Source of the DNA: Chiloscyllium plagiosum | Lineage: Eukaryota | Length of the DNA: 63,685 nucleotides | Direction: 5' to 3' | Assembly (NCBI RefSeq): GCF_004010195.1 | Contig: NC_057758.1 | Span: 6,131,352-6,195,036 of the forward strand | Shown here: in pieces, positions 7,653-41,600 of the stretch | Layout of the letters: each line of letters starts with the position of its first letter | Position numbering within the stretch: the first letter of the stretch is position 1 | Translations under genes and position numbers: made by a program | The notes under the pieces: model-generated | What the model was told of the DNA's origin: nothing | Databases searched by the model: none | What the model saw: the letters and a program-made list of their open reading frames with translations, nothing else

Positions 7653-8705
7653 ACATTGTGTATAACCATGCAAACAAGATCTACGATGGTCTGCCTTCTT
7701 ATCGTCTTCCAGCAAGTGAATTGCTGACATCCACATACTTGAAATAATAGACAACTTGAATTTTTGTGTTATTAGGTGTGGTTAATACTGGGACGATGGT
7801 TACCACCGCTTGCCGGCGCTTTCTGACAATCTGTCGTTCACTGAAACGTCTTGCCTTACCTCGGTAATTCAGTGAATGCAGCAACCACATTGCTAAAACG
7901 TGGTGCGAATTCCGAATAAAATCCACTTAATAATACGAGCGATAGCATTGCTTTTCTTGTCGATGGCATGGGAAATTTCCGACTCAGCTTTGTTTTTACA
8001 TTCCGTGGGGGCAATTGTCTATGTCCAATAATATTACCCACGAAGTTGACGTCGTGGTAAAGTTTGGTAAAGTTAATGATAGCCAGTTTTATCACCAAGC
8101 CTGCCTACCGAAGTCGTTTGAAGAATTCTGATAAAGTTGGCAAATGTTTTTTCCATGTGCACCTAAAAATCACCAGGTCATAAATATTTACTGTGCAACT
8201 TGGTATGCCAGAAATGATTTTGTTGGTTAGTCATCGAAATGTGGCTGTGCATTATTCATAACAAATGGTTTGACTTTAAACTGAGACAGTCCATTCTGTC
8301 TGAGGAAAGCCTATACTATATTCGTTATTTTGGACAACAGTACCTGCCAGTATCCTCTGAGCAAATCTAAACAGAAATATCAATTGCTTGTTTAATCTGT
8401 CCAACATAGTCTTCCACATATGTAAGCGGATCTGAATTAAACTTTGGTACTTCATTCACTTTTAAATAGTTCATTCATAAGCTTGCTCTGCATCTGAATT
8501 TGACACCATTACTATGAGTGAGATCCAGTCATAGTAACCCATTTTGACTATGTCGTCTTGGTGCGTGCATTCAAACGTCTTAAAACTTTGCCAACATTAG
8601 AGGGTTATACCGATAAGTATGTTGCTGCATCGGAACAGCATCTCTGATATCGACATCAGGCATAATTAGGTCAAATTTGCCAGCTTTGTTCTAACTGTCT
8701 CGCTC

Positions 8706-9424
8706 TGTAACAGTAACACACACAGGGTAACCCGCCTGCTCAATTTAAACCAGCAACACGGAGAAGGTTTAACTCTTGCACTAATCTGTGAAAATTACAG
8801 AGTTCAACAACTATTTAAAGTAAGAATTCACATCTTTATTCCTTGTGGTTTAACAGAGAATACTTACCGAACAACTATTCACAACTCAACCCTCTAACCT
8901 ATCTTTTAACTTGCCCTTCTACATTACTAATCTTATTAAACCCCACGATTAAGATTTACCAACAGTTCAAGTTTTCAAAACTAGCCAGATTTCGAACCTT
9001 TTCTGCATAGATCTTCTTTTCTTCTTCGGGATTTCTGTCTCACAGGTCAATTTTCAATAAAGGCACCTTTAAATTAGCGATTATCAAGGCTGCCTGCACA
9101 TACTGATGGCGTGACAGTTCTCCACCACCTGTTCAATTTTGCCCGGTCTTACACCTCCAAACCATCTGATTGTGTCACTGGCTTTTAAAATTGTCAATAT
9201 ACTAAATTCAGATTTAGTTAGAGTTTCATTTTTTTTTGCGTGGGGTGTATAATTTAAAATGATTGACCTAATTCAAATTTATGTGGCCGTTTCCAGGCAA
9301 CCAGCTACCCAGTTACTGAACCACATTTTACATTATATCTTGTTCAGGAGATTTGGTGTTGTCAGGTAGTTCTGCTATTTTTGAACTCTCTTAAAGATGC
9401 AGCAAACCCACATCTTCAAAACGA
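8706..9424 (-). mobile_element. Solo LTR nested in the Gmr1-like element (copy B)
   Basis: Reverse complement of 555-1263. Confidence 0.65.
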
Positions 9425-10904
9425 TCGCATTAAGTGTATGAGGTCTTTCGGGTTTTCCACGAGAAAGTAACTCAAAAAATTATCCCAAGTTTTGACATGT
9501 TCCCCATTCAGTAATTTAACTTGGGGAGAGTCCAATTCAGAATGTTCTGAACTTGGTTCTTCCTTCTGTTTTGCAATCAATAACACATTCTCCCCTAGTT
9601 TTCCTATCCTGTGAAAATACGTTTGTGCTTATTCACACGACACACTCTATGATCTTTATTTCTCTGTGGAGTTCTTATCAACTTGTTTAGTTCACAATCT
9701 CCTTTAGATTTGGTAAGGTCTCGTAATCCTTGGATTTAAAGGTTCACCTGCCACTGGAAGTGCCACTAACACTTGTCTCCAGTTGAAAAATTGCAGTGTT
9801 TTCGATTTCGTGTCTGCTTCCTGCATTGTATGCTGTGAAAGTTTTAAATGCTGTGTAGCCGTCTCCACTGCTCTATTCAAGTGTGCCCGAAAATTTGACA
9901 CATAGCCCAAAAATATGGTATTTGAATTATGTCTCCAAATTTCACCTGAATCAATTTTATTTTTCCTCTCACTTCATGATGGAAAACGATTTCAAGCGGA
10001 CAGAATGTGTTCAATTCATTTCATGCATCTCTGTTCACAAAACTACAAATGGAATTACTTCATCACAATCATTTGATTCGTCTTGAATGTCAACTCTGAA
10101 CATAGTCTTTAATGTCTGACGCCACGTTTCCAGCCATCGATGCAACTTTGTATGGGGCGCACTGTATTTGAAGTGTTTTATTCCTGAGCTGTCCGTAATA
10201 TCATTGCTTAATTTTGGTTCAAAGTGTGACCCTTGGTCTCTGTGGGTTCAGTTGAGATGGGATATTGCATAAAGAAGTGCGTGTGCAAGTCTCGTGGACA
10301 CATCCACTTATGTTAACGCAAATTGATTCCCACTTTTTGTTCTACGTAGGCGATCCTACAAAATCAATTATGACTCTTGTCAGAGGTCCCTCAAATGCAG
10401 AAATTGCTATAAAGATGCAAATTTTACTACTACCCGCGGTTTTCCAATTACTTGACAGGTATAACATGACTGACAAAATGTAATTACATTCTTGGAAGGT
10501 ACAAGTCAGTTAAAATATTTTTATATTTCAGTTTGAATCTTTCTTGCTCCTAAATAACCTCGTAGTAATTCACGTGTTACCCGCAACACCTCCTTTCTTC
10601 AGCTCATTGGCAATATAACTTGATATCCTTCAGACTATCCCTATCTGAATGAATATGTGGTGGCCTCCAATTCATTATTAAGATACCACTTTTAAGAATG
10701 CGAAAAAAGGAGATGCATATCGAGTCTTCTTTTGATTATGCTTTTTGATCAATTCCTTCCATTTCGCACCTTTCAGCTGTCACTCGGTTAATTTTCCAGA
10801 CTTGAAGACCTCTCCTTTATCACCCATTTACTCCTGTTTTCTATCAACCATCGAATCAAACAAGGTATCTGCAAAATCCATTTGAAGGTCCTTATCTGAT
10901 CTCT

Positions 10905-11990
10905 GTTTTCTCTCCTTTTTCAACTTGTAATTTTTTGTTACCACACAGTGAGCAAAAATCTTGGGATATGCTTGCAGTAATAGCACAACGTCCGCTCTCC
11001 CTTGGTCCAGGAACACCCCACACACGATTGGGATACCACCCACAAACTCCAGCTCCTCCGTGGATTTTGTTTCATTGGCCCAAAACACCTCATCTTTACA
11101 ATGGGCATCCAGTCCCTGTAGGCCTCTATCCATCATGGTGAAGACCTGCAAGCACTCCGTTTCCATCCCTGCCGCTAACCCAACCAGTACCCCAATACTA
11201 CCATGATACATTCATTCGATTGGCTAAACTGGTCCGCACCTTCAACAATTTCTCATCCGAATTCTCCCACTTCCATCAGGCCAAATGGGTAGCCATGGCC
11301 CTACCTACAGGTACCTCTTCGTCGGATATGTAGATCAGTCCATCTTCAGCAGTTACACTGGCATGATTCCACACCTTTTCCTCCTTTACATTGATGAGTG
11401 TATCAGCGCCATCTCGTTCTTCCACGAGGAGGTTGACCAGTACATCAACTTTACGACCATCATTCTCCTTGAACTCAAGTTCATTTGAACCAGCTCGGAT
11501 CCAGCCCTCCCCCACCTGAAACTCTCTGTAATCAATCCGGCAACGGACCCAACACGGGCATCTAATTCAATACCCACAGCTGCGAATACCCACAGCTCCG
11601 TGGAGTGAACACTCCTCCCTTCTGTAATATCACTGTCCCTTACTCTGATTCCTCTGTCTCCATCGCATCTGCTCCCATAGGGAGTAATTCCACTCCAATG
11701 TATCCCAGACTTTCTCGTATCCCGAGTACCACAATTTCCTCTCTGACACGTTTAATAATGCTCTCCAGCGCATCTCCTTCACTTGCTGCACCTCCACCTT
11801 TGAACTCCATTGCTCCAATCACAGCAAGGATACCTTGCCCACGTCCACACCCTCCACATTCCTAATGAACGGCTTATACCCGAAAGTGGATTCTCCTGTT
11901 ACTCGGATGCTGCCTGACCTGCTGTACTTTTCCAGTGCCACACTTTTCGAGTCAGGTTTTCAGCATTTGCAGTCCTGGGTTTCTCCTGAA
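10905..11990 (+). mobile_element. Penelope-like element RT fragment with 3' pseudo-LTR, inserted between PR and INT of the Gmr1-like element
   Basis: LIFTMGIQSL*ASIHHGEDLQALRF and MGSHGPTYRYLFVGYVDQSIF...LYIDECISA match Penelope RT motifs (FTMD..SLYT.I, GxAMG.....YA.LF.G..E, RYIDD). Degenerate hammerhead attcctaatga...cccgaaa at ~11858-11890. Confidence 0.85.
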
Positions 11991-13179
11991 GTAAACAACT
12001 GTCTATTCAACTAGAGTTGCCAGCATTCCTAACTCTGAACTAGCTATATGAGTAGCTATAACAGATTGTGTTCCTGGAAGGGAGCATTTGCCCCGTTTTC
12101 CTACCACGACTTCTCCACACTTCACTTGACACTTTTTCCTCAATTTTTGTAATTGAACACTTCTTCTCTCACACTGAGTTCCAATGACTCTCATATACTC
12201 CGATAACTAGTCTTCAGAGGTACATATGTTCTCATTTTTGAACATCAAAGATTGTGAGGATCCCGTATACCTTCCTATTGTAACATCTTTACCTGCTGCT
12301 CCTATGCGAGTAAGTTTTAACTTGGCAGGTAAATAGTTTGTAAAGGTCTGACACTTCCTTCTAATCCAACCTCCGACTGTCTTGAACATTCTGGTGTTGG
12401 CGTCAAGCCTCCACTTTGCCTTACTTTATCACTTCGACAAACTCACTGGCTTAATATGTTTCCTACTTCTGGCTTTCCATGCTTTTTAGTACTCATCAAC
12501 ATTGTTATTAACGTGTCCTACTTCAGTGCAGTGAAAATACAGGAGCTTTCCAACTTCTCTTTCAGTTTGAAGCTATTCCTTCATTCTGATTGTGCTCACC
12601 GAGTTCCAAACTTTCCTTGCCACGCCAGATTTTCTCTTTTCCTAATGTCTGTCCCTCATGGACTGAAATTGATGTCAGAACCAAACTTTGACTTCTGAAC
12701 CAATTCATAATTATCGATCATTTCTGCTGTGAATCTTGCCGTTTTAACGCTGTGCCTTCCACATGAGTACTCCATACTCTCCTCCAACATAAAATTCCCT
12801 CTTAGTTTTTTTTCACTTATCAAACTTACTTTATTTCAATGTCGTTTGCCTCGTTAGCGTCATGAAACGCTGGCACAAGCTCAGATGCAGTTAAGATGGG
12901 TTTGTTCACCTCCTCATATGCACCAAATATGAGGAGGTGAACAAACCTCCTCATGAGTGAGTGAGGCAAATTTGAGTGAGGCAAATTTCTTACTCGCTGT
13001 TTTGTTTTGTTGAAGCCGTAGCGTCGAAACACATTTACTGAAAGTAACGCTAACACTTGATCTCTGAGAGCAAAATTGTGGATTTTATTTTGATTTCGAG
13101 GGTCCTAGATTCAAAGAGACCCCCGGCGAGGAGGCAGGCACTTTCAAGCAAACAGTTTCATGCAGACCAGAAAGTCTAT

Positions 13180-14730
13180 CCACGCTTGCACCATTCCCCA
13201 GCAAATAGCCCATATCCCCCTTAATATTCCTGTTCATGCATTTGCCCAAACGGCTTATAAACTTTGTGAACATACTCGCCTCAGCAACGTCGTCAGGTAG
13301 CTCATTCCATATCCGTACCAAATTCTAAGTAAAGAATTTCTCCCTCAGTTCCTCTTCCTTTCTTTCTCCTCTAACACTGAACTGATGACTTCCCACGCTC
13401 AATTCTGGAACCCTGCGAAAACAAATGTGTGCATTCAAACTATCCATTCTTCATGGTCTCTTAAACGTCCTTAAGATCCCCCCTCAGTCTCCTACACTCG
13501 AAAGAAAAATCCAACCCTGTCCATCCTGTCCATTTAGCTCAGACACCTGAGTTCTGGCAACAAACCATTTATTTCAGAGTTCTTTCCAGGTAAAAAATAT
13601 TCCTCCGATAGCAAGATGACCGAAATTCATTGCAATACTCCAAGTGCTGCCTCACCAACGTCCTGTACAACTGCAACATAATCTCCCAACCTCTATTCTG
13701 AATGCCCTGACTGACGAATGCCAGTGTAGCAAAAGCCTTCTTCAATGCCCTCTCTACCTGTGACTCTGCTTTCAGAGAATCTGAACAAAAATATTCTTTC
13801 TGTTCGCCTCCACTCCTAAAGTCCTACTACACACTATTCACTATAGGACAGCTACCTTGAATCGAATTTCCAAAATGCAAAACCTTCCACTCATCTATAC
13901 GAAACATCCTTTGACTTTTCTTGGCTTACTGCTCCAGCTGATCAAGGTCCTAGTGCAATTTTTGATAACCTGCCTTAAGTTCCACTGTGACACTTATTTC
14001 GTGAGATCTGTAAATTTTCTATTCACGCCTAATACTTTTTCCTTCCAATTTATATGAATAGCAAACAATAATGGGACCAACAACGAGGCGTACTCTGAGG
14101 CACTCCACTCGTCACAGGCCTCCAGTTTGAAAAGTATCCCTTCACTATTAACCTGAGTTTGCTAACATAAAGTCAATTGTGTATCCAATTTATCATCTCC
14201 GCCTCCATTCCATTCGAACTCGCATTCCAGATCAACCGAGCATGTGCAACATTATCAAAATCCCTACCGGTTACGTGTACCAACCTGCCCTCGTCCAGCT
14301 TCCTATTACTTCATTAAAAACCTTGATCAAATTTGTTGCCCTGATCTCTCACGCTTAAAGCCATGCTAACCATTTCTAATCAAACCGTATTTTACCAAAT
14401 GCATGTACGTCTTATCTCTCAGATTCTTCTCAAGTATTTTACTTACCACAGATGTTAGGCTTACAAGTCCATCATTCCCATTACCTTTTTTCATGTTGTA
14501 TCTCTTGAATACGATCACAATATGGCTATACTTACTTTCTTTGTTGGAACCTCACCAGTGCCTAACGATGAGGGGATTATGGCGGCCAGGGCCTCTATGA
14601 TTCCAGTTGTCGCCTCTAACTGTGTTCTTGGATATATATGGTCAAACTCTGTGCATTCTCAGACATCTAACATCCGCTCTACTGTGATATGAACTGTTCA
14701 AAATATCACAACTGACAAAATATCCCAAGT
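13180..14730 (-). mobile_element. Decayed CR1 LINE ORF2 (RT to 3' end)
   Basis: MVRIWNELPDDVAEA (C-terminal RVV.xWN.LP motif), LVRQHLEYC and VTSGVPQ. Confidence 0.85.
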
Positions 14731-15299
14731 TCCCAAGTCTTAATGACATTCTCCACGAAAAACACAAAGGTGAAGTTCGCATCGCGCACATGTCCTGCAT
14801 TTCTACACATATGTCCACTTTGGAACTTCAGTGCTCCTACTCTCTCCATATGTTCCTTCCCCTTTAATCTACATAAAGATCATACTTGAATGCAACCTAC
14901 TAATCGTCCCAGCTACGTGTGTCTCTTCTTCAGTCAACTACTGAATCCCTGTGTACCTCCAAGAAAACTCTTGATCCCAGCTGTCTGTGGCTACGCTATA
15001 CATTGCTCGTTTTTCTGATCAAAGCATCAAGATCTCTTCATATTCAGTTTGTATACTGCAGAATATATTGCGTTTCAAACTCAACGGTCCAATGAGCTTG
15101 AACTCGACATATCCAGCTAATTCACGTTTCCGGGCCTTCCACTTGCTGGAGGTTATTTTATCTGGAAACAAACTCTCTGATCAAGAGACTTCCTGTTTCC
15201 TCATAGAATGTGTTTTTTTAATGTTGACTAGTAAACGCTCCCGTTCAATTTAACCGTTCCCTAAACTTTGCCGCCGTTGTACAACCCCATTTTTCCACT

Positions 15300-16560
15300 T
15301 TCTCCCCTAACCTTTCATCCCGTTGGCAATCAAGAAATCGCCTATCCCTACATAAGTAATATACTCAGTACCGTGTCCCCACAGCCTTCCATGGCAATGG
15401 TTTCCACAGATTGCCCACTCTTCAGCTGAAGATGTTTCTCCTGATTTGCATTTAAATGATATTCCCTTTACAGTACGGCTGTGCCCTCGGGCCCTCCTCT
15501 CTCCAGCCAATGGAACCAACTTCCCAACGTCCACATTGTCAAGGCCGTGCAGAATTCTGTAAGTTTCAGACCGAGCCTCCCCTCATCCTTCTAAACTCCA
15601 TCGAACGTAGTCCCAGAGTCCTCAAATATTCATCACATGTAAAGCTTTCCATTCCTGGGATTACACTCCTGAACAACGTCTTGATCCACTCTCGGGCCAA
15701 TATGTCGTTTCTCAGAGATGCGCCCCCAGATTGCTAACCGCAGTCCTAACGTGGTTTTATTGAAGCCTTATAAAGCCTCAGAAGTACATTCCTGTTTTTA
15801 TAGTCTCGTCTCTCGAGATGAATGAAAATATTATATTTGCCTTCCTAACTCGACAAACTTGCAAATTTTAAATAACAGGACATTTTCTCATCCAATTTCT
15901 GAATTATCTGACCATTTCGAAAATACTCCACGCATGTATTCTACCTATCAAAGTGCAAGACCTAACACTTTCCCATGTTGCATTTCAAATGCCAATTCTT
16001 CTCCCACTCTATTAAGCTGTAACGTTTTCTTGCAGCCTCCCTGCCTCCTTAATACTAACTGCTCTTAGATCCACCTTTACATTAGCTGCAAACTTAGCCA
16101 GAATCCCCTCTGTTCATTCATCCAGATCATTAATGTGTAAAGAGACAACGTGTTGTCCCAATACTGACTCCTGTGGTACACTACTTGGTAGTGTCTTCCT
16201 TCCTGAGAACGGCCATTTTATTCACAGTTTCTACCGTCTGCCAAACTAACAATCTTCGATCGATGTTTGCACCTTGCCTGTAATACAGAGCAGCCTCCTG
16301 TGCAGCACCATAACAAAGGCCTTCTGGAAGTCCAGGTAGATGGCATCCAATTCCTCTCCTTGGTCTCACCATTTGTTACTTCCTCAAAGAATACTTATAG
16401 ATCTGTCAGTTATGACCACCCCTGAATGTGCATTTACCTATGTTACCATGCACTTCCACGTATCCAAAAATTTGAATTTTCATAATAAACCCCAAAAGCA
16501 TAACAACGACTGAGTCAGGCTAAACGGACTAAAAAATCCCAATTCTTTTGCTTACTCCCT
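15300..16560 (-). mobile_element. Decayed CR1 LINE ORF2 fragment
   Basis: KLVPLAGERRARGHS, YLDFQKAF and WLSL.L (KFAA) RT remnants. Confidence 0.8.
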
Positions 16561-16598
16561 TCTGAAACAAGGAGATTTTCAAATCGTCTGAGACCCTT

Positions 16599-16895
16599 GG
16601 GGCAGCACGTGGCTCAGTGTTTAGCACTAATGCCTAGGTTCGATTCCAGCCTCATTCTACTGTGTGGAGTTCGCACCTTTTCCCCGGGTCTGCGTGGGTT
16701 TCCTCCAGGAACTCCGGTTCCCACCTCTAGTCCAAAGATGCGCAGGTCAGGTGAACAGGCCATGGTAAATTGCACATAGTGTAAGGTGCATTAGTCAGAG
16801 GGAAATGGGTCTGGCTGAGTTCCTCATCAGAGGGTCGGTAGGGACTGGTTGAGCCGAAGGGCCTGCTTTCACACGACAGGGAATCTCATCTAATC
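16599..16895 (+). mobile_element. tRNA-derived SINE (HE1/V-SINE-like)
   Basis: A-box tggctcagtgt, B-box ggttcgattcc, V-domain-like tgtgtggagtt.gcac.tt.tcccc..gtctgcgtgggtttcctcc, and (aatct)n-like tail. Confidence 0.85.
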
Positions 16896-16919
16896 CCCCT
16901 GACTCCAGTGATACCAAAT

Positions 16920-18660
16920 GATTGGAATTAAAGCTTCTGCTGTCTCTCAACATATCTCATTCTGAGCTGCGTGCCGAGTGGATCCGGCTCTTCGTGATCC
17001 ACCTATTTTTAGACCTTTCAATTTTGCTAGCAGCTTCTTCAACGGTGCTGGTCACCATTCCCATCTTCTCTCCCAACCCGCCTTAACCGACCCTCTTGGA
17101 TTTCTGTGATATAACATATCTCTTCCACTGTGCAAAATGATTAATTGTGCTTATTCATTTCCTTAGTTTTTTCCCCATTAATCCTCCATCATCTTCCTGT
17201 GATCCGCTAACAATCTTTGCCTCACTCCTGCCCATTATATATCCAAAGAGACACCTGCAATCTTTCCTAATATTACTCTCAAGCTCACACTCATATTTAA
17301 TGTCTCCACCTTTATTTCTTTCTTCACTGTCCTGTGTTGGTCTTTTTCCACTGTCCAATTCCAAGTCTTGCCAATAGCAGTCGCCAAATCATTTGCTTTG
17401 TCTGTTGCTTGTGAGCTGTCCCTGACTTCCCTCGTCAAATATTTGCATCATCCTCCTTTAGTCTACTTGTTTGTCTCGGATGGAGTTTTGCTGTTTCTCT
17501 CTCAATTCTACGGGAAGCTCCTGTCATTGCTGTTCCAAAGTCACTCCTTGTGGTTTCATCTTCCAGTCAATTATTGCCAGCTCCACTATCGTGCAGCTGT
17601 ACTTGCCTTCTTTCGACTGTTATACTGTTAGCTCAGAATCCATGTTCTCCCTAAAGGTTGCATTGTACGTTCCAGCATGTCATGGTCACTGATCTAGGAA
17701 TTTCTTTAACTTTAGCACCCTTATCAAATCTCTGTCATTGCAAAACAGTAAATAATAAACTGCCTCTTCTGCCTGGGATCCAACAAAAAATGCTGAAAGA
17801 AAACGTCTCATAGACGTTCTACAACTAAGTTTTGATGCGATCCACGACCAATCTGATTTTGCAACTCTATCTGAACATTGAATTCAATCATTATTACTGT
17901 AATCTTGCCTGACTTGTCCCACCCTTCTGTCTCTTGGTTAATCGTATGCCCAAAATCCTGACTATGATTTGGAGCTCTGTAGATTACTACCAGACTAGTT
18001 TTGTTTAACTTTTCCGTATCCTCCACACACAGATTCTACATCACCTGACCTTACTTCATATACTGTTATAGATTTACCTTCATTTTTACAAAGAACACAA
18101 CCCCACCTACTCTGCCCACCTGTCTGATTTTTTTGTGGAACGTTACCCACAGATAATTTGTCACTTGTCCCGACTCCCTTTCAGCCACGTCTCTGTAACC
18201 GCCCATGCCTGCCTGTTTTCTTTCACGCCTCAAACTCATTTACCTTATTTCGTATATGGCGTGATTTCGGAAATCACACCTTTAGTTCTGCATTGATCGT
18301 ACCTGTTCTGATTGTTATTCGTTAATCAAATTTGTTTAAAGTATAGTTTCTAACCCATTCCAAACACTCTGCACTATTTTGTGTGCTGTAAAATTTAATC
18401 AACCCTCCTGAGTTGTTCCGTATTTTCTCTTTTTTTCATACATGTCAATGTAGTTGAATCCAAAACCATAGATCTAAACTGCAGATTCGCTTCCATTTGT
18501 GCATTACACGTTTTGGAGTTTTTCCCTGCCCTTCTGCTCATTTATTAGGTTAAAGTCCTGTTGATCACCCGAGTTACCTTTTCTGCTGGAACACTGGCAC
18601 CAACGCGATTTAGGTATCGGTACAGATCCCTTCTGCTCCAATACTAATGCCAGTGCCCCA
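16920..18660 (-). mobile_element. Decayed CR1 LINE (ORF1 end, endonuclease and linker)
   Basis: KTSLVVIYRAPNHSQDFGHTINQE and I.VTETWLK endonuclease motifs, plus KYECELESNIRKDCR.LFGYI. Confidence 0.75.
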
Positions 18661-18675
18661 TTTTGCAAGTCGTAA

Positions 18676-18875
18676 GAACTTGACATACTATGATGGGTTA
18701 CTTGACCAATCTGAAAAGATAACCTGGCTCTCAGACTTGCAGCTACAGTGGAAAAATATTGCTTGAAAAAGAGACTTAGGTTGTGTGATTTCGTTTAATG
18801 AATTATAGAAAGTGTATCTTATCCAGTTTTACCAAGACAGCTGAAAGGTTGAAACAAAATCACTGAGAAAAATAA
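18676..18875 (+). mobile_element. Putative 5' LTR remnant of an endogenous retrovirus
   Basis: Colinear similarity to 22903-23080 (ttgacatact..tgat.gg.tacttg.ccaa..aacc.ggctctcaga.ttgcagct..ttgtgt..gaattataga.agtg.atctta..tgagaaaaat). Confidence 0.55.
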
Positions 18876-18959
18876 CTTGCATCATAAGGTGGAAATATTA
18901 CGGTAACAGGTATTGGTCCTCATCGTTCCACTGGGTCACTGGTGTTATGGTCCTCCGTG

Positions 18960-19980
18960 AAACACGAGATTGTGGGTGCGTCATTGCCTTTTGTTATGAT
19001 CTTTTCATATAGTCCAAGGACCGTTGGCTCTATGAAGAATCGTTTGACTTAAATAAAATTAGGAATGGCAAGAAATTACTTAGGAAGTTGTTGTCGATCC
19101 AACTGGGACAAATGTCATAAGATGCATAGTTTCATTAAATGGTTACACATTGCTGAACGTCATGAATTTAAAAATTCCCTCGCAAATGTAAAACAAGCAA
19201 AGATTCCAATGAATTCAGAAACCACCTTCATTTGCCTCGATGGGGCTGTATCCTCAGAATGAATATGGCAGGACACAATTCAGGAGAATATCCCCCTGAC
19301 TACGGCCGAACAACAACAGTCCCCCCCTCCCCCCAGCAGTACCATCCCAACTCTAATCAAACTTCGCAGTGCCGGGAATTCGTGCAGATTACTGGCATGC
19401 CAATATCCTCACCTGATTCTACCCACCACATTATGAGGCAGACTAGCCTCCAGGTTTAAATGCGTCCCCTGGATATAGCATCTGGGTCACTCACCGCCAC
19501 CACTGATGCTAATGAAACTTTTAATTTCACTTATCTTGCCACATGTGTGCCCGGGTCCTGGTCGATGATAGAGCTGACCTGAAGCCTTGATCACCTCTGA
19601 GGTTCAAAGCATGAATAATGATGCTCCTGACCCATTGAGGAAGCCTGCGCCTTAAATAACTGGATTGTCCATACCTGCCAAATTTAGGGACATCCTTACA
19701 CGGGTATATTCTTCTTCTGCTCAAAGTTACATATTGCAATGCAATGGTGGCTTCTAAGGATTCTTGTCTCAGTCCCGGACACGGAAAATATGTATGGTTA
19801 TAGGAACCCAAAAAGGAAGAGTGGGGTCAGGGAAACATCGCCAGAAAGGGTGGCCCCGCAATCAAGCTGTGCAGGCCACATAAAATGGGGTTAGGCAGCA
19901 TCGTGTTTTTGGGGCGATCACTCGATGCCTTCATAAGAAAGGAGAATGCCTTACTGATTCTGTCCCCTATATTAAGGACC
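18960..19980 (+). pseudogene. gag: ERV gag remnant (matrix-like, PPxY late domain, capsid N-terminus-like)
   Basis: WLYEESFDLNKIR at 19025-19063 (class I ERV MA WPxxGxFDxxxI-like). PPDY at 19292-19303 followed by a Pro-rich tract. SWSMIELT...APDP at ~19556-19635 (RPWT..EL...LPDP-like). Frameshifts and stops are present. Confidence 0.5.
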
Positions 19981-19989
19981 CATTCAACT

Positions 19990-21600
19990 TAACAACATAG
20001 AACATAGAACAGTATAGCACAAAACAGACACTTCACCTTTGCTGTAGTGCTGGCATTCAGTTCTACTCAAAAAACCAGATGAACCTACTTACCCTTTATT
20101 ATACTAAATTCCATGTGCCTATCCAAGAGTACCTTAAATGTATCTAGCCTATCTAATTCTACAACCACTGCTGGCAATGCATTCCCAAGTCTCTGGCTTT
20201 CCACTCTGTCTAAGCCTCTCCTCATCTTTTACACCTCTATCAATTCACCTTTCATCCTTCTTCGCTCCAATGAGAAAAGGCGAATCTCACTCAATCTTTA
20301 TTGGTAAGACATGCCCTCCAGTCCAGGCAGTATCCTGGTAAATCTTGCTTGCAACCTCTCTACAACTTCGACAACTTTTCTATTATGAGGCGAACAGAAC
20401 TGGACACAATATTCCAGTTGTGGTCTAACTCGGACTCGAAAGATTTTCAGCATAACCTCGTGGATCTTGAAGCCAATTCCCCCTGTTAATGAAAGCCAAA
20501 ACAGCATACGTCATAGTAACAAGCCAATCAACTTGCGTGGCAACTCTGACAGATCTGTGGACAGGGAACACAAGATTCCTCCGCTCCTCCATGTTGCAAG
20601 GAATCCTGCCTGAAAACCTATAATTTTTACATTCACTTTCAACCTTCCAAAGTGAATGACTTTACATTCTTCCAGGTTGAACACCATCTGCCACTTGTCC
20701 GCCCCATTCTGCATCTTGCCAATGTCTCATTGTGATCCACAGCAGCCCTTCACTATGTCTACTACTCCGCCAAACTGTGTGACATCAGCAAGCGTAGTCG
20801 CCAATCCTTTCACTTCCTCATTCGAATCATTTATAACAATCACAAAGAACAAAGGCCCCAGAACCAGTCTCTGCAGAACATTGGTCACTTCGTTCGAGGC
20901 TGAACACTTTCCATCTACCACCACCATCTGTCTTCGGTTGACTAGCCAATTCTCGACCCAGCCAATTACGTTGCGCTGCATCCATGCCTCGTTACTTACT
21001 AAATGAGCAAAAGTCCCGGAACTTCATTATTACCACCAACACTACTCTAATTTCATCAACATATTTTGTCACATCCTCAAACTTTTCAAGAAGGATTGTG
21101 AGGCATGACCTGCTCCTGCTCATGATGCCTATCTCTAACCAATCTGAGGTTCTCTGAGTTATCATAAATCTGTCTCTCGGAAGTGTCTCCAATAATTTGA
21201 ACACTACAGACATAACATTTACTGGTCTATAATTATCAGCATTATCATTTTACCCTTTGTTGAACATGGGAATGGTGTTTGCAACCGACCACCATTTGGC
21301 ACTACGCCATTGGACAGCGAGGATTCGAAGATTTGTGCCAAAGGCCCAATCTCTTCCCTCAATTCCCTTAGAAACCTCGGGTATATCCCGTCCGGTGGAT
21401 GGGATTTGTCTATCCTCGATATTTTCAAACTTTGCTGCACATCATTCTTCCTAAAATCAATCTTTTATTTCATGCACGACTATTTCAAGCTCTCATCACA
21501 AAAGTGAATGTCCCACTAAGTAATGAATAGTGAAGCAAATTATTCACTAATGTCTAACACTGCATCTTCTGACTCCACGTGGAAGCTCCCATCCTGTCGG
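19990..21600 (-). mobile_element. CR1 LINE 3' fragment inserted in the ERV
   Basis: VRPQLEYCVQFCSPHNRK, WVENWLVNRRQMVVVDG...VLGPLFFVIVIND and DKSHPPDGIYPRFLRE. 3' tail (aacatag)n at ~19994-20009. Confidence 0.9.
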
Positions 21601-22087
21601 AATCATTCGTGGGAGTACTCCTGGGAACAAAAAAAATTGTATTTCGCGCCAGCTCGCTCCGGTTTCCAAAATTATCAATCTCATCTGGAATAGGCAGAAT
21701 TGCAGGGCTGTTTTTAAACCTCTCATTTATGTGGACTGACATGGTTGATTTAACCAGGTGTCTTAGGGTCTGAATGCCAGTTTCTCCAACATAACCAATC
21801 TTGTCAGGAAGGCACCAAAAGTATTGCCCACACCAATTGGATGGGTTGGCAGTGGATGGTTTAGTCAAAGGATAATAAAGGTTTCATTCGCTGTGATCAG
21901 AAGGATCTTTGGGCAAGAGATTGTTGAGTGCAGTTGGCTGCTCCCCCCTGAAAAGTACAGGTGTGTGGCCTTGCATTATGAATCAGCTGTGTAATGTTGG
22001 AGCAATGGGATATGTCTAAACACGAATCATAGTTTTATGTAGGATACCTTTACACCGAAGCTCAAGATTTCCTTCACCTGTTTGCTC

Positions 22088-22312
22088 ACCCGAGTGGGCA
22101 AGTCTTCTCCTCCTGGAGCCAATATACCAACCATTGCAACGAACAGCTGGATCTGACAATCGGAAGTGGCAGAGACAAACCATTATAAATGCCGGAGGAA
22201 ACATCACAAAAGCGCTTCATAGGAGGCTCCCAAGCACTGAGGATGTCACCTAGACAGGGACGAAACGTCTGCAATACAAATTCCCAGCTTGGCGAACAGA
22301 ACCACAACATCT
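22088..22312 (+). mobile_element. Penelope 3'/pseudo-LTR fragment inserted in ERV env
   Basis: ...EPIYQPLQRTAG (Penelope C-terminal-like) followed by a hammerhead motif. Paralogue at ~38523-38730. Confidence 0.65.
22234..22272 (+). ncRNA. Minimal type I hammerhead ribozyme motif
   Basis: gca-CTGAGGA-tgtcacctagacagggac-GAAA-cGTC-tgc, with intact CUGANGA/GAAA/GUC core and stem I gca/tgc. Confidence 0.7.
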
Positions 22313-22710
22313 TCCACTCCTATTTGAACCTGTTAGCATTCCCAAGAATTGGGCAAATTAGAAATAGTGTTGGAAATTGTCGACAATGATAGCATTGAGG
22401 GCCTGACCGAGAGCAATACTGAGCACGTCGAATATAGAACAGTCCTCCCTGTAAACCGCTTGGCCTTTGGTTTTCTAATATCGCAGGGGGGTGACATTTG
22501 TGCTGTTATTGTTGCCGAATGCTGTACCCCCTACCAAATAATTCCGAAAATCTATCCGATTTCGTGAATCACTGAAATTACGAAATTACGCTCTTGTTTT
22601 AATTCAGGAGGGCTTTTGCACTCGCCTGGCTGGATAAAAGGGGAACTTCCACGCACTGGGATCGTCACCTTTGCTATCATATTCTTGTTGTGCGCAGTTT
22701 GCTCCTCCCA
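22313..22710 (+). pseudogene. env: ERV env transmembrane subunit remnant (heptad repeat, ISD-like segment, CX6CC, membrane anchor)
   Basis: ORF 22349..22567 LEIVDNDSIEGLTESNTEHVEYRTVLPVNRLAFGFLISQGGDICAVIVAECCT matches the gamma-type TM consensus LQNRxALDxLLAxQGGxCAxIxxECCTYIPDNS. Hydrophobic GIVTFAIIFLLCAVC lies at ~22658-22702. Confidence 0.85.
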
Positions 22711-22885
22711 CATTTTTTAGTCCAAATCCAGTGATCATCTACTGGACTCTACCCCATCACGATTCCTCCGATGAGAAAATATATATAAGTATGCTCCCTT
22801 TTCCAGAAGGAAATGCGCTCCCTTTATTGGATGAATCGGTATTGTAAACTTAGATTTTAATCTGGAAGATCAACAAGGAAGGGAT

Positions 22886-23266
22886 TGTGGAAGCAGGAAA
22901 AAAATTGACATACTGCTGCATGATCGGATACTTGGCCAAGATGGTAGGTAACCCGGCTCTCAGAATTGCAGCTGTCATCGAAACGTAATTCTGGAGATAA
23001 AGACTGACATTGTGTCATATTATTTCACGAATTATAGAGAGTGCATCTTACACTCCTAATCTCTCTGTCCTTGAGAAAAATCAAATTTAAAGAGAGAAAT
23101 GGCACTGTGCTTATGGTTATGTTGAATTATTGCATTCTACATTACTTGATTGCGGAATGTAATCTAAGTAAAACAAGCAACGTTTTATGCATCATTGTAT
23201 AAACATAGGCTGAGTGTTCAACTCGAGAAATTGTAGTAAGACAGTGAAGCCTGTGGCAGCCTTTCA
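22886..23266 (+). mobile_element. Putative ERV 3' LTR preceded by a PPT
   Basis: PPT aaggaaggga(t) at 22875-22885, then TGTGG. Similar to 18676-18875. The 3' end at ...tttca is tentative. Confidence 0.55.
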
Positions 23267-24234
23267 CGGGAAAAAAAGAGGTTTCTTGAAACAAGTCTCA
23301 AAATTTCAGACGATCTAATTTCCTCGACTCCCATAATAAGGAACCTCTCGTTCCTGCCTCACTTCTTGACAGCACACCCAAACCAAACCATAATTCATTA
23401 ACCAGTCCATAATATTCAGCCATTTTAACTGCTGATGCTGCCGTTGTCACTCTGCTCTTCCCCGTGAGTTCTCACTGCCTCTAGAAGTAAATATTTCAAT
23501 GGCTCCGAAACCGTCGGCTCCCTTAAGAGTTACATATATGAATTTTTTTAATGTCTGTCCTCATCTGTCAGCATTGTTTTGTTTGTTCCTTTCACATTCT
23601 ATGTATGTTTAACCTGGTCCCTCCTTGGATTCAGATATGGTCTCTTCTATTTCTGTCACCAGCTCATGTGCATTTAAGAGAGCTTCCTTCACTTCAACAG
23701 ACTCTCAAGATACTCCTGTAATAACACCTTATGAGTTCTACCTACCAGTTCTGATTGGATCGACGAACCCCATAGTCACTGGCCACTGTGCTGTTTTAGT
23801 CATTTTCTCAAATTGAATGAACAAGACTTCTGTTTCCTTTCTATCAAATTCAGACAATGCTTGGATATATATATATTAGACCGATTCCAACCAGGCCTTT
23901 CACTACGATGGGTTTGTTCATCCACACTCTCTTCCTCACGATGTGTACCCTACAATCTTTTAAGCCAATTCCTTAATTTCAAGGTCTCTCTATTTCTACC
24001 TTTCATCTCTCTGTTTTTCATCCTTCACAAGTTTTACCTCTTTCTTCAGCTCAGTCTTTCATCTCATTGTCTTTATGGTCGGCTTTTAACCGTAACTGAA
24101 ATTGTACCATTTCAATTTCGTCTTTATGTTGCCTCGTCTGCAATTGAATTCTTGCCGTTTCCAAAGATTTAGTTGACGTTACCAGCAAATTTAACAAACA
24201 AGTTATTTTTATTATCACTTAACTTTTTTCTCAT

Positions 24235-25417
24235 AGACGAAGCTGCGTCCACTGCATCCTTGTGCAGAGAATTCCAATGATTCACTACTCTCCGGGAAAA
24301 TCAGTTCGTCCCCTTCACTGTCTTAAATTTTACTCCCCCTAACCTTGAGGCTATGTATCGAGTTCTAGTCTCACCCACCAGCGGAAACAATTTTCTTGCC
24401 TTATTCTTAACAATCCCTTCCATAACTTTATATGTTTCTGTATGGTCCCATCTATTCCATCTAAATTAGAGCGAGTACTGCCTAAGGCGGCTCAAACTTC
24501 CCTGATCGGGTGACCCTCTTATCTCTGGAATCAGTCTGGTGAACCTCCTTTGAAAAGCCTCCAAGGCCACTATGTCCTTCCTCAAATAATGAGACCAGAA
24601 CTGCAGAAAATATTGAGAGTGCGACCTCACCATCTCTGTGTGCAACTGCAGCAGAAACTCCCTCGAGCAACGAAGCCAATATTCCGTTTATCTTCCTGAT
24701 TACCTGTTGTATCTGCGAATCAGCTTTTAGGGATTCATGTACAATCACCTCTACGTCCGTGTGCACAGCAGTATGCTTCAATCGTTCACAATTTAAATAA
24801 TGCGCTGGCTTACTATCATTACTTTCAAAGTGAACAACGTTACTTTCACCAATATTGTACTCCACATGCTAAACCCTAGCTCACTCACTTAATCGAAATC
24901 TCTCTGCAGCCCCACCACATCCTCTGCACAGTTTGCTATTCCACTCAATTTAGTGTCATTAGCAAAGTTGGATACCTTTCACTCGATATCCACTTCCACA
25001 TAATTGATGTATACAATGAACAGTTTTGACCTGATCACTGATTCCTGCGACACCCTGGTGAAGACCGATCTCCAATCAGTGAAACAAACATTCCCTGCAC
25101 CTCTCTGCTCTCTATTGATTGACAAATCTTCCATCCATGCTTGTAAATTCCCCACAACTACATGCATTTGTATCTTATGAATGGGTATTTTATGCAGCAT
25201 CTTATCAAATGCCGTGTGTATGGCCAAGGTGACAACATCCAACTGTTCTCCCTCATCCACCATCTTTGTTACATCCTTAAAGAACTTCCAGTAGACTTGT
25301 CACGAACGACCTTCCCTTCTTGTATTGATTTTACGTTCTGCCTGATGGACCCTTTTTTCCAGATGTCTCACTATTTCCTGTTAAAAAATGCACTCCAAAA
25401 TTTTCCCAACTACAAAT
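24235..25417 (-). mobile_element. Decayed CR1 LINE RT/3' fragment
   Basis: VDEGEQLDVVTLAIHTAFDKMLHK...FIVYIN and, in copy C, KLFPLAGETRTR...FSQRVVNQWNSL. Continues at ~25905-26770. Confidence 0.85.
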
Positions 25418-25418
25418 A

Positions 25419-25495
25419 GGTCGGAGGTTTAGCTCAGATGGTAAGAGAGTGCTGTAATAACGCCAAGGTCGTAGTTTAACTCCTCAAACTGACCA
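25419..25495 (+). pseudogene. tRNA-Ile(AAT)-derived pseudogene
   Basis: ggtcgg...tagctcagatggtaagagagtgctgtAATaacgccaaggtcgtagtttaactcctcaaactgacca aligns to vertebrate tRNA-Ile-AAT (TAGCTCAGTTGGTTAGAGCGTGGTGCTAATAACGCCAAGGTCG...ACTGGCCA). The T-arm is broken. Confidence 0.75.
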
Positions 25496-35441: not shown

Positions 35442-35497
35442 CTACGACCTTAGCGTTATTACTGCACTCTCTAACCATCTGAGCGAAACCTCCTATC
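35442..35497 (-). pseudogene. 3'-truncated tRNA-Ile(AAT) pseudogene (copy C)
   Basis: Minus strand ggaggtttcgctcagatggttagagagtgcagtAATaacgctaaggtcgtag is the paralogue of 25419-25474. It abuts the CR1 5'UTR. Confidence 0.7.
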
Positions 35498-38084
35498 TAT
35501 TTCTAGTTGGGAAAATGTTGGAGTGCACTTTCTAACAGGAAATAGTGAGACATCTAGAAAAAAGGGTCCATCAGGCAGAACGTAGCATCAATACAAGAAG
35601 GGAAGGTCGTTCGTGACAAGTCTACTGGAAGGTTTTTAAGGATGTAACAAAGACGGTGGATGAGGGAGAACTGTTGGATGTTGTCACCTTGGCCATACAC
35701 ACGGCATTTGATAAGATGCTGCATAAAATACCCATTCATAAGATACAAATGCATGTAGGTGTGGGGAATTTACAAGCATGGATGGAAGATTTGTCAATCA
35801 ATAGAGAACAGAGAGGTGCAGTAAATGTTTGTCTCACTGATTGGAGATCAGTCTTCACCAGGGTGTCGCAGGAATCAGTGATCAGGCCAAAACTGTTCAT
35901 TGTATACATCAATGATGTGGAAGTGGATATCGAGTGAAACGTATCCAACTTTGCTAATGACACTAAATTGAGTGGAATAACAAACTGTGCAGAGGATGTG
36001 ATGGGGCTGCAGAGAGATTTCGATTAAGTGAGTGGGCGAGGGTTTAGCATGTGGAGTACAATATTGGTGAAAGTAACGTTGTTCACTTTGAAAGTAATGA
36101 TAGTAAGCCAGCGCATTATTTAAATTGTGAACGATTGAAGCATACTGCTGTGCACAGCGACTTAGAGGTGATTGTACATGAATCCCTAAGAGCTGATTCG
36201 CAGATACAACAGGTAATCAGGAAGATAAACGGAATATTGGCTTCGTTGCTAGAGGGAGTTTCTGCTGCAGTTGCACACAGAGATGGTGAGGTCGCACTCT
36301 CAATATTTCCTGCAGTTCTGGTCTCATTATTTGAGGAAGGACATAGTGGCCTTGGAGACTTTTCAAAGGAGGTTCACCAGACTGATTCCAGAGATCAGAG
36401 GGTCACCCTATCAGGGAAGTTTGAGCCGCCTTAGGCAGTACTCGCTCTAATGTAGATGGAACAGATGGGACATTACAGAAACATATAAACTTATGGAAGG
36501 GATTGTTAAGAATAAGGCAAGAAAATTGTTTCCGCTGGCGGGTGAGACTAGAACTCGATACATAGCCTCAAGGTTAGGGGGAGTAAAATTTAAGACAGTG
36601 AAGGGGACGAACTGGTTTTCCCAGAGAGTAGTGAATCAATGGAATTCTCTGCACAAGGATGCAGTAGAAGCAGTTTCGTCTATGAGAAAAAAGATAAGTG
36701 ATAAGAAAAATAGCTTGTTTGAGCTGAAGAAAGAGGTAAAACTTGAGAAGGATGAAAAACAGAGCGACGAAAGGTAGAAATAAAGAGACCTGGAAATTAA
36801 GGAATTGGCTTAAAAGATTGTAGGATACACATCGTGAGGAAGAGAGTGTGGATGAGCAAACCCATCGTACTGAAAGGCCTGGTAAGAATCGGTCTAACAT
36901 ATATATATCCAAGCGTTGTCTGAATTTGATAGAAAGGAAGCAGTTCCTTTCACATTCAATATATTAAACATATATTGAATGTGAAAGGAACAAACAAAAC
37001 AATGCTGACAGATGAGTACAGATATTAAAAAAAATCATATATGTAACTCTTAAGGGAGCCGAGGTGTTATTACAGGAGTATCTTGAGAGTCTGTTGAAGT
37101 GAAGGAAGCTCTCTTAAATGCACATGAGCTGGTGGCAGAAAGAGAAAGAGACCATATCGGAATCTAAGGAGGGACCAGGTTAAACATATATTGAATGTGA
37201 AAGGAACAAACAAAACAATGCTGACAGATGAGTACAGATATTAAAAAAAATCATATATGTAACTCTTAATGGAGCTGACGGTTTCGGAGCCATTGAAATA
37301 TTTACTTCCAGAGGCAGTGAGAACTCACGAGGAAGAGCAGAGTGACAACGACAGCATCAGCAGTTAAAATGGCTGAATATTATGGACTGGTTTATGAATT
37401 ATGGTTTGGTTTGTGTGTGCTGTCAAGAAGTGAGGCGGGAACGAGAGGTTCCTTATTATGGGAGTCGAGGAAATTAGATCGTCTGAAATTTTGAGACTTG
37501 TTTCAAGGAACGTCTTTTTTTTTCCTGAAAGGCTGCCACAGGCTTCACTGTCTTACTACAATTTCTCGAGTTGAACACTCAGCCTATGTTTATACAATGA
37601 TGCATAAAACGTTGCTTGTTTTACTTAGATTACATTATGCACTCAAGTAATGTAGAATACAATAATTCAACATAACCATAAGCACAGTGCCATTTCTCTC
37701 TTTAAACTGGATTTTTCTCAAGGACAGAGAGATTAGGAGTGTAAGATGCACTCTCCATTATTCGTCAAATAATATGACACAACGTCAGTCTTTATCTCCA
37801 GAATTACGTTTCGATGACAGCTGCAATTCTGAGAGCCGGGTTACTGACCACCTTGGCCAAGTGGCCGAAAATGCAGCAGTTTGTCAATTTCATACTGCTT
37901 CCACAATACACTCCTTGTTGACCTTCCAGATCAAAATCTAAGTTTACAATACCGATTCATCCAATAAAGGGAGTGAATTTCCTTCTGGAAGAGGGAGTAT
38001 ACTTATGTATATTTTCTCATCGTAGGAATTGTAATGGGGTAGGGTCCAGTAGATGATCACTGGATTTGGACGAAAAAACTGTGG

Positions 38085-38520
38085 GAGGAACAAACTGCGC
38101 ACAACAACAGCCTGTAATTCACGGTAGGATGTAAAGTATCCGGAATATGATAACAAAGGTGACGATCCCAATGCGTGGAAGTTCCCCTTTTATCCAGCCA
38201 GGTGAGTTCAAAAGCTATCCTGAATTAAAACAAGAGCGTAATTTCGTAATTTCTGTGATTCACGAAATCGGATAGATTTTCTGAATTATCTGGTAGGGGG
38301 TACAGCATTCGGCAACAATAACAGCACAAATGTCACCCCCCCCCCCCCCCGCGATATTAGAAAACCGAAGGCCAAGCGGTTTTCAGGAACGACTGTTCTA
38401 TATTCGACGTGCTCAGTTTTGCTCTCGGTCAGGCCTTCAGTGCTATCATTGTCGACAATTTCCACACGACTGCTAATTTGCCCAATTCTTGGGAATGCCA
38501 ACAGTTCAAATAGGAGTGGA
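38085..38520 (-). pseudogene. env: ERV env TM remnant, copy C, frameshifted by a G15 run
   Basis: ORF 38286..38591 reads ENRLAFGFLISRGGGGV; the CAVIVAECC codons follow out of frame. Confidence 0.8.
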
Positions 38521-38560
38521 AGATGTTGTGGTTCTGTTCGGCGAGCTGGGAATTTGTGTT

Positions 38561-38600
38561 GCAGACGTTTCGTCCCCTGTCTAGGTGACACCCTCAGTGC
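38561..38600 (-). ncRNA. Hammerhead motif with a core substitution (CTGAGGG)
   Basis: gca-CTGAGGG-tgtcacctagacaggggac-GAAA-cGTC-tgc. Paralogue of 22234-22272. Confidence 0.55.
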
Positions 38601-41600
38601 TTGGGAGCCTCATGTGAAGCGCTTCTGTGATGTTTCCTCCGGCATTTATATTGGTTTGTCTCTGCCACTCTCAGTTGTCAGTTCCAGCTGTTCGTTGCAG
38701 TGGTCGGTATATTGCGTCCAGGAGGAGAAGACTTGCCCACCTGGTTGAGCAAACGGGTGAAGGAAATCTTGAGTTTCGGTGTAAAGGTATCCTATATAAA
38801 ACTATGATGCGTGTTAAGACATATCCCATTGTTCCATCATTACACAGCTGACAGGTGCTCTTGGCACTCATAATGCAAGGCCACACACCTGTACTTTTCA
38901 GGGGGGAGCAGCCAACTGCACTCAACAATCTCTTGCCCAATGATTCTTCTGATCACAGCGAACGAAACCTTTATTATCATTGGACTAAACCATCCACTGC
39001 CAACCCATCCAATTGGTGTGGGCAATACTTTTGGTGCCTTCCTGACGAGATTGGTTATGTTGGAGAAACTGGCATTCAGACCCTAAGATACCTGATTAAA
39101 TAAACCATGTCAGTCCACATAAATGAGAGATTTAAAAAAACAACCCTGCAATTCTGCCTGTGCTAGATGAGATTGATAATTTTGTAAACCGGAGCGAGCT
39201 GGCGCTCAATACAATTTTTTTTTGTTCCCAGGGGTACTCCCACGAATGATTCCGACAGGAAGGTAGCTTCCACGTGGAGTCGGAAGATGTAGTGTTAGAC
39301 ATTAGTGAATAATTTGCTTCACTATTCATTACTTAGTGGGACATTCACTTTTCTGAGGAGAGCTTGAAATAGTTTTACATGAAATAAAATATTGATTTTA
39401 GGAAGAAAGATGTGCAACAAATTTTGAAAATATCGAGGATAGACAAATCCCCTCCACCGGACGGGATATACAGCTTGATTGCCTCCCTTTCTGGCGATGT
39501 TTCTGTGACCCCACATTTGGGAGGGCATTTTTACATTCATAACGTTCAGCAACGTGTAACCATTTAATGAAACAATGCATCTTATAACATTTGTCCCAGT
39601 TGGATCGACAACACCTTCCTGAGTAATTTCTTGCCATTCCTAATTTTATTTAAGTCAAACGATTCTTCATCGAACCAACGGTCCTTGGACTATCTGGAAA
39701 GATCATAACAAAAGGGAATGGCGCACCCACAATCTCGTGTTTAATGGAGGACCAAAACACCAGTGACCCAGTGGAACGATGAGGACCAATACCTGTTAGC
39801 GTAATATTTTCACCTTTTGATGCAAGTTATTTTTCTCAGTGATCTTGCTTCAACCTTTCAGCTGTCTTGGTAAAACTGGATAAGATACACATTCTATCAT
39901 TCAGCAAACGAAATCACACAACCTAAGTCTCTATATCAAGCAATATTTTTCCAATGTAGCTGCAAGTCTGAGAGCCAGGTTATCTTTTCAGATTGGTCAA
40001 GTAACCCATCATAGTATGTCAAATTCTTACGACTTGCAAAATGGGGCAATGGCATTAGTATTGGAACAGAAGACATCTGTACCGACACCTAAACCGCGTT
40101 GGTGCCAGTGTTCCAGCGGAAAAGGTAACTCGGGTGATCAACAGGACTTTAACCTAATAAATGAGCAGAAGGGCAGGGAAAAACTCCAAAACGTGTAATG
40201 CCCAAATGGAAGCGAATCTGCAGTTTAGATCTGTGGTTGTGGATTCAACTACATTGACATGTATGAAAAAAGAGAAAATATGGAACAACTCATGAGGGTT
40301 GATTAAATTTAAAAGCACACAAAATAGTGCAGAGTGTTTGGAATGGGTTAGAAACTATACTTTAAACAAAATTGATTAACAAATAACAATCAGAACAGGT
40401 ACGATCAATACAGAACTAAAGGTGTGATTTCCGAAATCATGCCATATACAAAATAAGGTAAATGAGTTTGAGGCGTGAATCAAAACTGGCAGGCATAATG
40501 TCATGGGCGGTTACAGAGACGTGGCTGAAAGGGAGTCGGGACAAGTGACAAATTATCTGTGGGTAACGTTCTACAAAAAAAATCACACAGGTGGGCACAG
40601 TAGGTGGGGTTGTGTTCATTGTAAAAATGAAGGTAAATCTATAACAGTATATGAAGTAAGGTCAGGTGATGTAGAATCTGCGTGCGGAGGATACGGAAAA
40701 GTTAAACAAAACTAATCTGGTAGTAATCTACAGAGCTCCAAATCATAGTCAGGATTTTGGGCATACGATAAACCAAGAGACAGAAGGATTGGGCAAGTCA
40801 GGCAAGATTACAGTAAGAATGATTGAATTCAATGTTCAGATAGACTGGCAAAATCAGATTCGTCGTGGATCGCATCGAAACTTAGTTGTAGAACGTCTAT
40901 GAGACGTTTTCTTTCAGCACCTTTTGGTGGATCCCATGCAGAAGAGGCAGTTTATTATTTACTGTTTTGCAGTGACATAGATTCGATAAGGGTGCTAAAG
41001 TTAAAGAAATTCCTGGGTCAGTGACCATGACATGCTGGAACGTACAATGCAATCGTTAGGGAGAAGATGAATTCTGAGGTAACAGTATAGCAGTCGAAAG
41101 AAGGCAAGTACAGCTGCACGATAGTGGAGCTGGCAATATTTGACTGGAAGATAAAACCAGAAGGAGTGACTTTGGAACAGTAATGACAGGAGCTTCCCGT
41201 AGAATTGAGAGAGAAACAGCAAAACTCCATCCGAGACAAACAAATAGACTAAAGGGAGGATGGTGCAAATATTTGACGAGGGAATTCAGGGACAGCTCAC
41301 AAGCAACAGACAAAGCAAATGATTTGGCGACTGCTCTTGCCAAGACTTGGAATTGGACAGTGGAAAAAGACCAACACAGGACACTGAAGAAAGAAATAAA
41401 GGTGGAGACATTAAATATGAGTGTAAGCTTGATAGTAATATTAGAAAAGATGGCAGGTGTCTCTTTGGATATATAATGGGCAAGAGGGAGGCAAATATTG
41501 TTAGTGGATCACAGGAAGATGATGGTGGATTAATGGGAAAAAACAACTAAGGAAATGAATAAGCACATTTAATCATTCTGCACAGTGGAAGAGATATGTA

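Follow-up and report, generated by a model that had tools for sequence, protein, structure and literature searches.

The question raised by this locus is whether the interval 18676-23266 of a 63,685-nt stretch of the Chiloscyllium plagiosum genome (assembly GCF_004010195.1, contig NC_057758.1, positions 6,131,352 to 6,195,036, hereafter the window) preserves the remains of a single retrovirus. A sequence-only reading had proposed here an old, class I-like endogenous retrovirus (ERV) with long terminal repeats (LTRs), gag, env and a polypurine tract (PPT), hidden under CR1 and Penelope insertions and amplified by a segmental duplication. Our analysis suggests that the element is probably a dead, internally deleted ERV with a gamma-type envelope protein (Env), copied passively. 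Observed at the locus are homology to the Env transmembrane subunit (TM) and a PPT-bordered pair of direct repeats; two retroposons inserted later, and an inverted duplication of the host segment then gave rise to a second copy (Table 1).

As to the TM, the region 22343-22728 is a real, though decayed, remnant of env that codes for a gamma-type Env TM. The open reading frame (ORF) originally given as 22349-22567 is the stop-to-stop ORF 22337-22567 (76 codons), and it does hold NRLAFGFLISQGGDICAVIVAECC. When this ORF was compared with 1.84 billion proteins by phmmer, 16 matches were obtained, with an E-value of 4e-7 for shark and fish retroviral Env; 12 of these carry the TLV_coat domain (one just below the curated cut-off), the other four being repeat-protein artefacts, and of the 10 that were looked up, those with names are Env-like proteins of Scyliorhinus plus an ERVV2-like fragment from a salmonid. 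The closest named relatives are the catshark (Scyliorhinus) Env-like proteins, with 45-48% identity over 62 TM residues. A profile built from the 12 TLV_coat matches scores 63.7 bits on 22316-22528 and 27.4 bits on the second copy, the top stretch elsewhere in the window reaching 5.2 bits (2442 tiles). A frameshift-aware profile of 39 proteins scores 77.5 over 22340-22728 across one frame break (shuffle maximum, 17.7), with profile positions 272-403, from heptad repeat 1 (HR1) to HR2 and the membrane anchor, aligned to this interval, and the score of the part following the CX6CC motif is reached by none of 300 control stretches, in both copies. The immunosuppressive domain (ISD) and CX6CC lie at 22454-22525 (hhalign probability 98.7), and this combination is an accepted signature of gamma-type Env (PMC9967133, partial text). 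It is on the TLV_coat matches, the profile scores and the ISD-CX6CC signature that the identity of the TM stands. The match to retroviral Env TM that the sequence-only reading had anticipated for 22349-22567 is thus significant by phmmer, profile and hhalign; its identification of the ISD and the disulfide motif is upheld, but the QNRxxLD pattern that it invoked has lost its Q and D, and only 8 of 14 invariant residues remain in this degenerate ISD. The 76-codon ORF on its own gives no Pfam match at E<=1, nor was a match found when Pfam was searched more widely across the element, with 13 ORFs and 16 frames. The TM shows 43% mean identity to 16 relatives, which share 65% among themselves, and open reading in the element is limited to 62-76 TM codons. 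The element presumably makes no protein and is without evident function; its ERV parts attract next to no reads in about 2% of one single-cell RNA run, a sample too thin to weigh.

The second line of evidence comes from the direct repeats. The sequences 18660-18821 and 22884-23050, in the same orientation and 4.2 kb apart, are identical at 120 of 161 positions, with an alignment score of 136 that none of 500 shuffles reach (maximum, 36) and a BLASTN E-value of 1.7e-17. The likeness proposed between 18676-18875 and 22903-23080 is therefore significant, but its length is about 160 nt, not 200 or 380, and the LTR end proposed at 23266 is not borne out, likeness past 18825/23052 being at chance level (51 of 500 shuffles). 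The purine run aaggaaggga at 22875-22884 and the TGT at 22886-22888 are present as described; the tract ends 1 nt ahead of the 3' repeat, and a purine run no more than 3 nt upstream is true of only 0.54% of window positions. Where the 3' copy begins with TG, the aligned start of the 5' repeat has TT. What is found is thus the arrangement of a provirus: two directly oriented LTR-like repeats, the 3' one preceded by a PPT, with a likeness significant over about 160 nt. A tandem provirus, considered from repeat extension past 23200, was rejected (63 and 453 of 500 shuffles reach the scores). Between the repeats transversions exceed transitions (transitions to transversions 17:24 and 17:28), which is unusual for neutral vertebrate decay, and the duplicate copies of the repeats give 2:6 and 6:9; these are all small samples.

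Of the interior, much less is recognizable. The motifs noted upstream, WLYEESFDLNKIR at 19025-19063, PPDY at 19292-19303 and a Pro-rich tract at about 19320-19335, are all present; the gag that they were taken to mark is not recovered, every homology test being null and the hints remaining at motif level. The window has 8 PPxY motifs in 127,366 codons, two of these at 19292 and 19423, with a chance expectation of 0.04 per 560 nt, and by eye the spacing from W-x3-S-F-D-L to PPxY is like that to PPPY in the gag of L013, an intact relative. The L013 gag scores at background against the 5' region (105 of 250 controls reach it), a search for relatives of that gag gave only 4 near-identical fragments, and a weak search with the PPDY ORF found no relative. 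Two integrase-like candidates were rejected: WIVHTC at 19652-19678 as an integrase C-terminus (14 of 150 controls reach its score, and the integrase profile did not pick it), and 23270-24190 on the minus strand (44 of 100 controls). For the surface subunit (SU), the ATG at 19739 lies about 294 native codons before the NR of the ISD, the distance being 264-292 in four relatives of 404-421 aa and 372-428 in three longer ones; the SU profile test at 19739-19990 was null, the scores on 21596-22111 were reached by 96 of 400, 17 of 150 and 48 of 150 controls, and an SU with CXXC and a furin site gave no significant match, the region being decayed and split by inserts. No match was found inside the element when the pol ORFs (protease, reverse transcriptase (RT), RNase H and integrase) of L007, L008 and L013 served as queries. 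With the inserts removed, the native sequence between the repeat starts amounts to about 2.4 kb, compared to about 9.9 kb for gag, pol and env in L013, so that there is no room for pol, and the claim of no recognizable pol is confirmed on both counts. Judged from spacing alone, the start of an ordinary-sized env would fall near 19739, about 0.9 kb from the repeat core, leaving less than 1 kb for the LTR end, the leader and a gag stub. The layout would then run from the 5' LTR through a short leader or gag stub and a broken env to the PPT and the 3' LTR, with the internal part assigned by position. No Rfam match in 18400-23600, no tRNA genes, and nothing in viral-contig scans were found.

The native sequence is interrupted by two high-copy retroposon inserts, in agreement with the proposal of nested insertions, the second of which maps to about 22112-22309 and not to 22088-22312. 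The first we take to be CR1-like from its translation and tail, and the second, presumably, Penelope-like from its sequence; neither label comes from a library match. One window copy matching the CR1-like insert overlaps an ORF with a weak RVT_1 match. At 22112-22309 contig depth exceeds 1e5, with loose read ends at both borders, and a contig of the organism designated B joins to 22317 without this insert. Within it, at 22237-22266, are CTGAGGA ... GAAAC boxes resembling the minimal hammerhead ribozyme core, with no Rfam match and a fold z-score of -0.54. Penelope-like elements carry hammerhead ribozyme motifs (PMC6155905).

The second copy lies, as proposed, on the minus strand within an inverted segmental duplication (8451-25477 versus 35439-50177, 90-96% identical, and 94-96% around the element), and it is more deleted, being without about 19190-19820 and 19871-21380, with 2-nt microhomology at both junctions and further frame breaks in the TM. 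Still present in it are the final ~215 nt (21381-21595) of the CR1-like insert along with the second insert, and thus both inserts predate the duplication. More broadly, segmental duplications that differ in age (86-96% identical), inverted as well as direct, are nested across window positions 1-25477 versus 35439-56012 and take up most of the window, and no host gene was found among the 83 window ORFs scanned. Contig depth over the bins of the ERV is at or below that of the flanks in all three contig runs, parts of the inserts being 10-1000 times deeper, and, in a contig comparison made at 80% likeness, contigs of low depth and about 85% identity span the flanks plus parts of the element among the longest pieces. 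Depth and flank-bearing contigs fit an element carried along passively when the host segment was copied, and not one that spread as a family.

As to the age, the Kimura two-parameter (K2P) distance between the repeats is 0.317 for copy 1, against 0.356 for copy 2, with a standard error (SE) of about 0.055 over 159 sites. Synonymous divergence of whale shark and zebra shark, 0.061-0.111 over some 50 million years (My; PMC13100897, partial text), was converted here to 0.6-1.1e-9 per site per year, at which rate the repeats would be 142-291 My old (94-385 My within 2 SE). At the rate of 2.2e-10 assumed elsewhere (PMC4422223, partial text) they would be over 700 My old, which is impossible; the choice of rate thus largely governs the date. 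The decay of the TM agrees with a deep age, fitting about 0.16-0.18 neutral substitutions per site by our own estimate, and the claim of great age and strongly diverged LTRs is supported by both the K2P distances and this decay. In the scenario that we prefer, a retrovirus would have integrated in the germ line of an ancestral shark roughly 140-290 My ago, and pol and most of gag would have been lost, before integration or later, so that the LTR starts are now separated by about 2.4 kb of native sequence. The element would then have decayed neutrally and received the CR1-like and Penelope-like inserts, and its copying would have been by host segmental duplication only.

Several points weigh against such an interpretation. 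The repeat is significant over some 160 nt only, its upstream extension being at chance (334 of 500 shuffles), and neither repeat yielded an LTR 3' end. A scan for target-site duplications (TSDs) gave nothing convincing, one 4-mer at an implausible end, 23376, and no primer-binding site (PBS) was found, as judged by eye only. Tblastn, pairwise alignment, and frameshift-aware profiles compared with random window stretches all fail to detect gag, integrase and SU, and the internal layout rests on position for this reason; the gag test used the single full-length ERV-type query of L013 and is hence a weak null. Copy number cannot be read from contig depth, and the contig comparison would miss relatives of less than 80% identity. 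The date, too, is drawn from 159 sites, with the SE given above, and from a rate of two other sharks.

These gaps bear most directly on an unlikely alternative, in which the env remnant and the 3' LTR are real and the 5' repeat is a related LTR from some other insertion, or else a recombinant junction; the element would then not be one provirus, and the LTR date would be too old. Besides the lack of a TSD or PBS and the short repeat, it is favored by a contig of organism B that matches part of the 3' and part of the 5' repeat (joint 22940 to 18724), and therefore other related LTR copies exist, as well as by the known sensitivity of LTR dating, a method known to be unreliable at such depth, to recombination and sequence erosion (PMC5962544, partial text). 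However, the repeats agree in orientation and in their left edge, their native spacing suits a deleted provirus, the gag-like motifs come after the 5' repeat, and the decay of the TM independently implies deep age. Considerably less probable is a non-autonomous, pol-less, env-bearing element, arising from a deleted genome or a reverse-transcribed spliced env RNA and forming a family of its own via helper enzymes: the ~2.4 kb native length, the ~0.9 kb from the repeat core to the putative env start, and the two preserved LTR-like ends would all suit it, but the depth does not rise above that of the flanks and the diverged contigs carry flank sequence. The idea that the TM-like ORF is an endogenized glycoprotein (GP) of the filovirus or reptarenavirus type, or a host co-opted, syncytin-like env, is scarcely credible and already largely refuted, since, even with 39 of 40 PDB matches being filovirus GP entries (best E-value, 0.0084) and some shark relatives auto-named syncytin-like, shark and fish retroviral Env match far better (E-value 4e-7), the PPT and LTR-like repeats are present, GP2 has the ISD-CX6CC motif by known homology (PMC9967133, partial text), and stops, frame breaks and inserts leave no intact ORF in either copy.

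The deleted ERV with a gamma-type Env thus preferred is ordinary as a type, decayed ERVs of this kind being already known in sharks, and the proposal of an uncatalogued lineage is weak: an Env-based search gave 85 relatives, including annotated proteins of ten elasmobranch genera, bony fish and hagfish, and ERVs with gamma-type Env have been reported in 6 cartilaginous fish, three with over 500 copies (10.1101/2021.11.23.469661, partial text), while cartilaginous-fish ERVs are spread throughout the retroviral tree (PMC6001957, partial text). No paper on this locus came up in the literature searches made. Neither can the class I gamma/epsilon-like label be given, because in fish gamma-type Env is found alongside pol of the class I epsilon, class I gamma or class III snakehead-like type (10.1101/2021.11.23.469661, partial text), and the element is without pol. 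A TM tree, as had been suggested, was built (53 rows by 63 columns; of 47 labelled proteins, 2 were left out because the motif was missing), but the element sits on a long branch and is not placed, so that a distinct lineage is neither supported nor excluded. The anamniote ERVs-GTE described in the same source (partial text) resemble the element in a TM with HR, ISD, CX6CC and membrane anchor, occur also in cartilaginous fish and keep paired LTRs in few copies; in contrast, the element has no pol to type, is broken throughout, of low copy, and has a repeat divergence of about 0.3. The elasmobranch ERV-PABLB-like or syncytin-like Env proteins (among them XP_072343862.1 of Scyliorhinus torazame and XP_038630100.1 of S. 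canicula) have the same ISD-CX6CC spacing, but long open frames, unlike the 62-76 open codons and unrecognizable SU here. The CmiERVs of the elephant shark (PMC4422223, partial text) are likewise LTR-flanked chondrichthyan elements with env, dated by LTR divergence, but are 9.6-10 kb long with pol, and diverge by 0.024-0.033, about ten times below the 0.32-0.36 of the element. The GP2 proteins of filoviruses and reptarenaviruses have the ISD-CX6CC TM module in common with it, but match far more weakly, and those viruses have no LTR or PPT context. In metagenome contigs L001 (142-1458, 3009-4670) and L002 (473-1459, 3010-4689), a gamma-type env ORF is followed downstream, with no change of strand, by a gag-like ORF with a zinc knuckle, an order that may reflect tandem proviruses, a circular assembly, or an env-first layout.

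The value of the element would be as a dated fossil. That the repeats form a true LTR pair, left by one integration some 140-290 My ago, is a tentative and rather doubtful proposition; if true, this would be among the oldest individually datable retroviral integrations, older than the 104-110 My of an ERV-L orthologue, the record in a 2017 review (PMC5962544, partial text), and the estimate would exceed published shark ERV dates of 36-75 My, among them the ~36 My of catshark ERVs (PMC10699275, partial text). Its readability would then be owed to the slow shark clock, orthologues would be expected across shark families, and gamma-type Env in fishes could be calibrated directly from it. Should orthologues confirm a Mesozoic or older integration, single ERV loci could be followed further back in time, and a direct date would be gained for the gamma-type Env of cartilaginous fish. 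Pol-first screens (PMC4422223, PMC10699275, partial texts) would miss a pol-less, insert-broken locus like this one.

Table 1. Features of the probable ERV and its second copy, in window positions (LINE, long interspersed nuclear element; U3, LTR segment name).
Feature	Positions	Strand	Basis
5' direct repeat, probable U3 side of 5' LTR	18662..18821	+	pairwise alignment, BLASTN
Rest of LTR, leader, possible 5' gag stub	18822..19738	+	motifs only
Possible start of env SU	19739..19990	+	spacing only
CR1-like LINE insertion, 5'-truncated, decayed	19991..21595	-	nhmmer to many other window copies; very high contig depth
Low-copy stretch between inserts, probably decayed env SU by position	21596..22111	+	
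Penelope-like insert, very high copy, just upstream of TM	22112..22309	+	depth, loose read ends
Decayed gamma-type Env TM	22343..22728	+	phmmer, profile and hhalign matches, shuffle/control scores
TM internal order: HR1, ISD, CX6CC, then frame break and stops	CX6CC 22499-22525; break near 22530		
HR2 and membrane-anchor region of TM, in a different frame	after break near 22530		
PPT-like run at left edge of 3' repeat	22875..22884	+	
3' direct repeat, probable U3 side of 3' LTR, begins TGTGG	22886..23050	+	pairwise alignment, BLASTN
Second copy in inverted segmental duplication	37742..40040	-	window self-comparison

Other old repeats surround the element. The left flank, 17300-18660 on the minus strand, reads like what we take, from its translation, to be a decayed CR1 endonuclease region, and the ERV lies directly beside or within this repeat. 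The right flank, 23378-23851, has weak matches at 59296-59742, 45635-45956 and 12676-12930, and is another old repeat. Decayed RT and RNase H pieces of another LTR retroelement, positionally unrelated to the ERV, are present at 50930-51313 (plus strand), 55819-56103 (minus) and 56510-56677 (minus).

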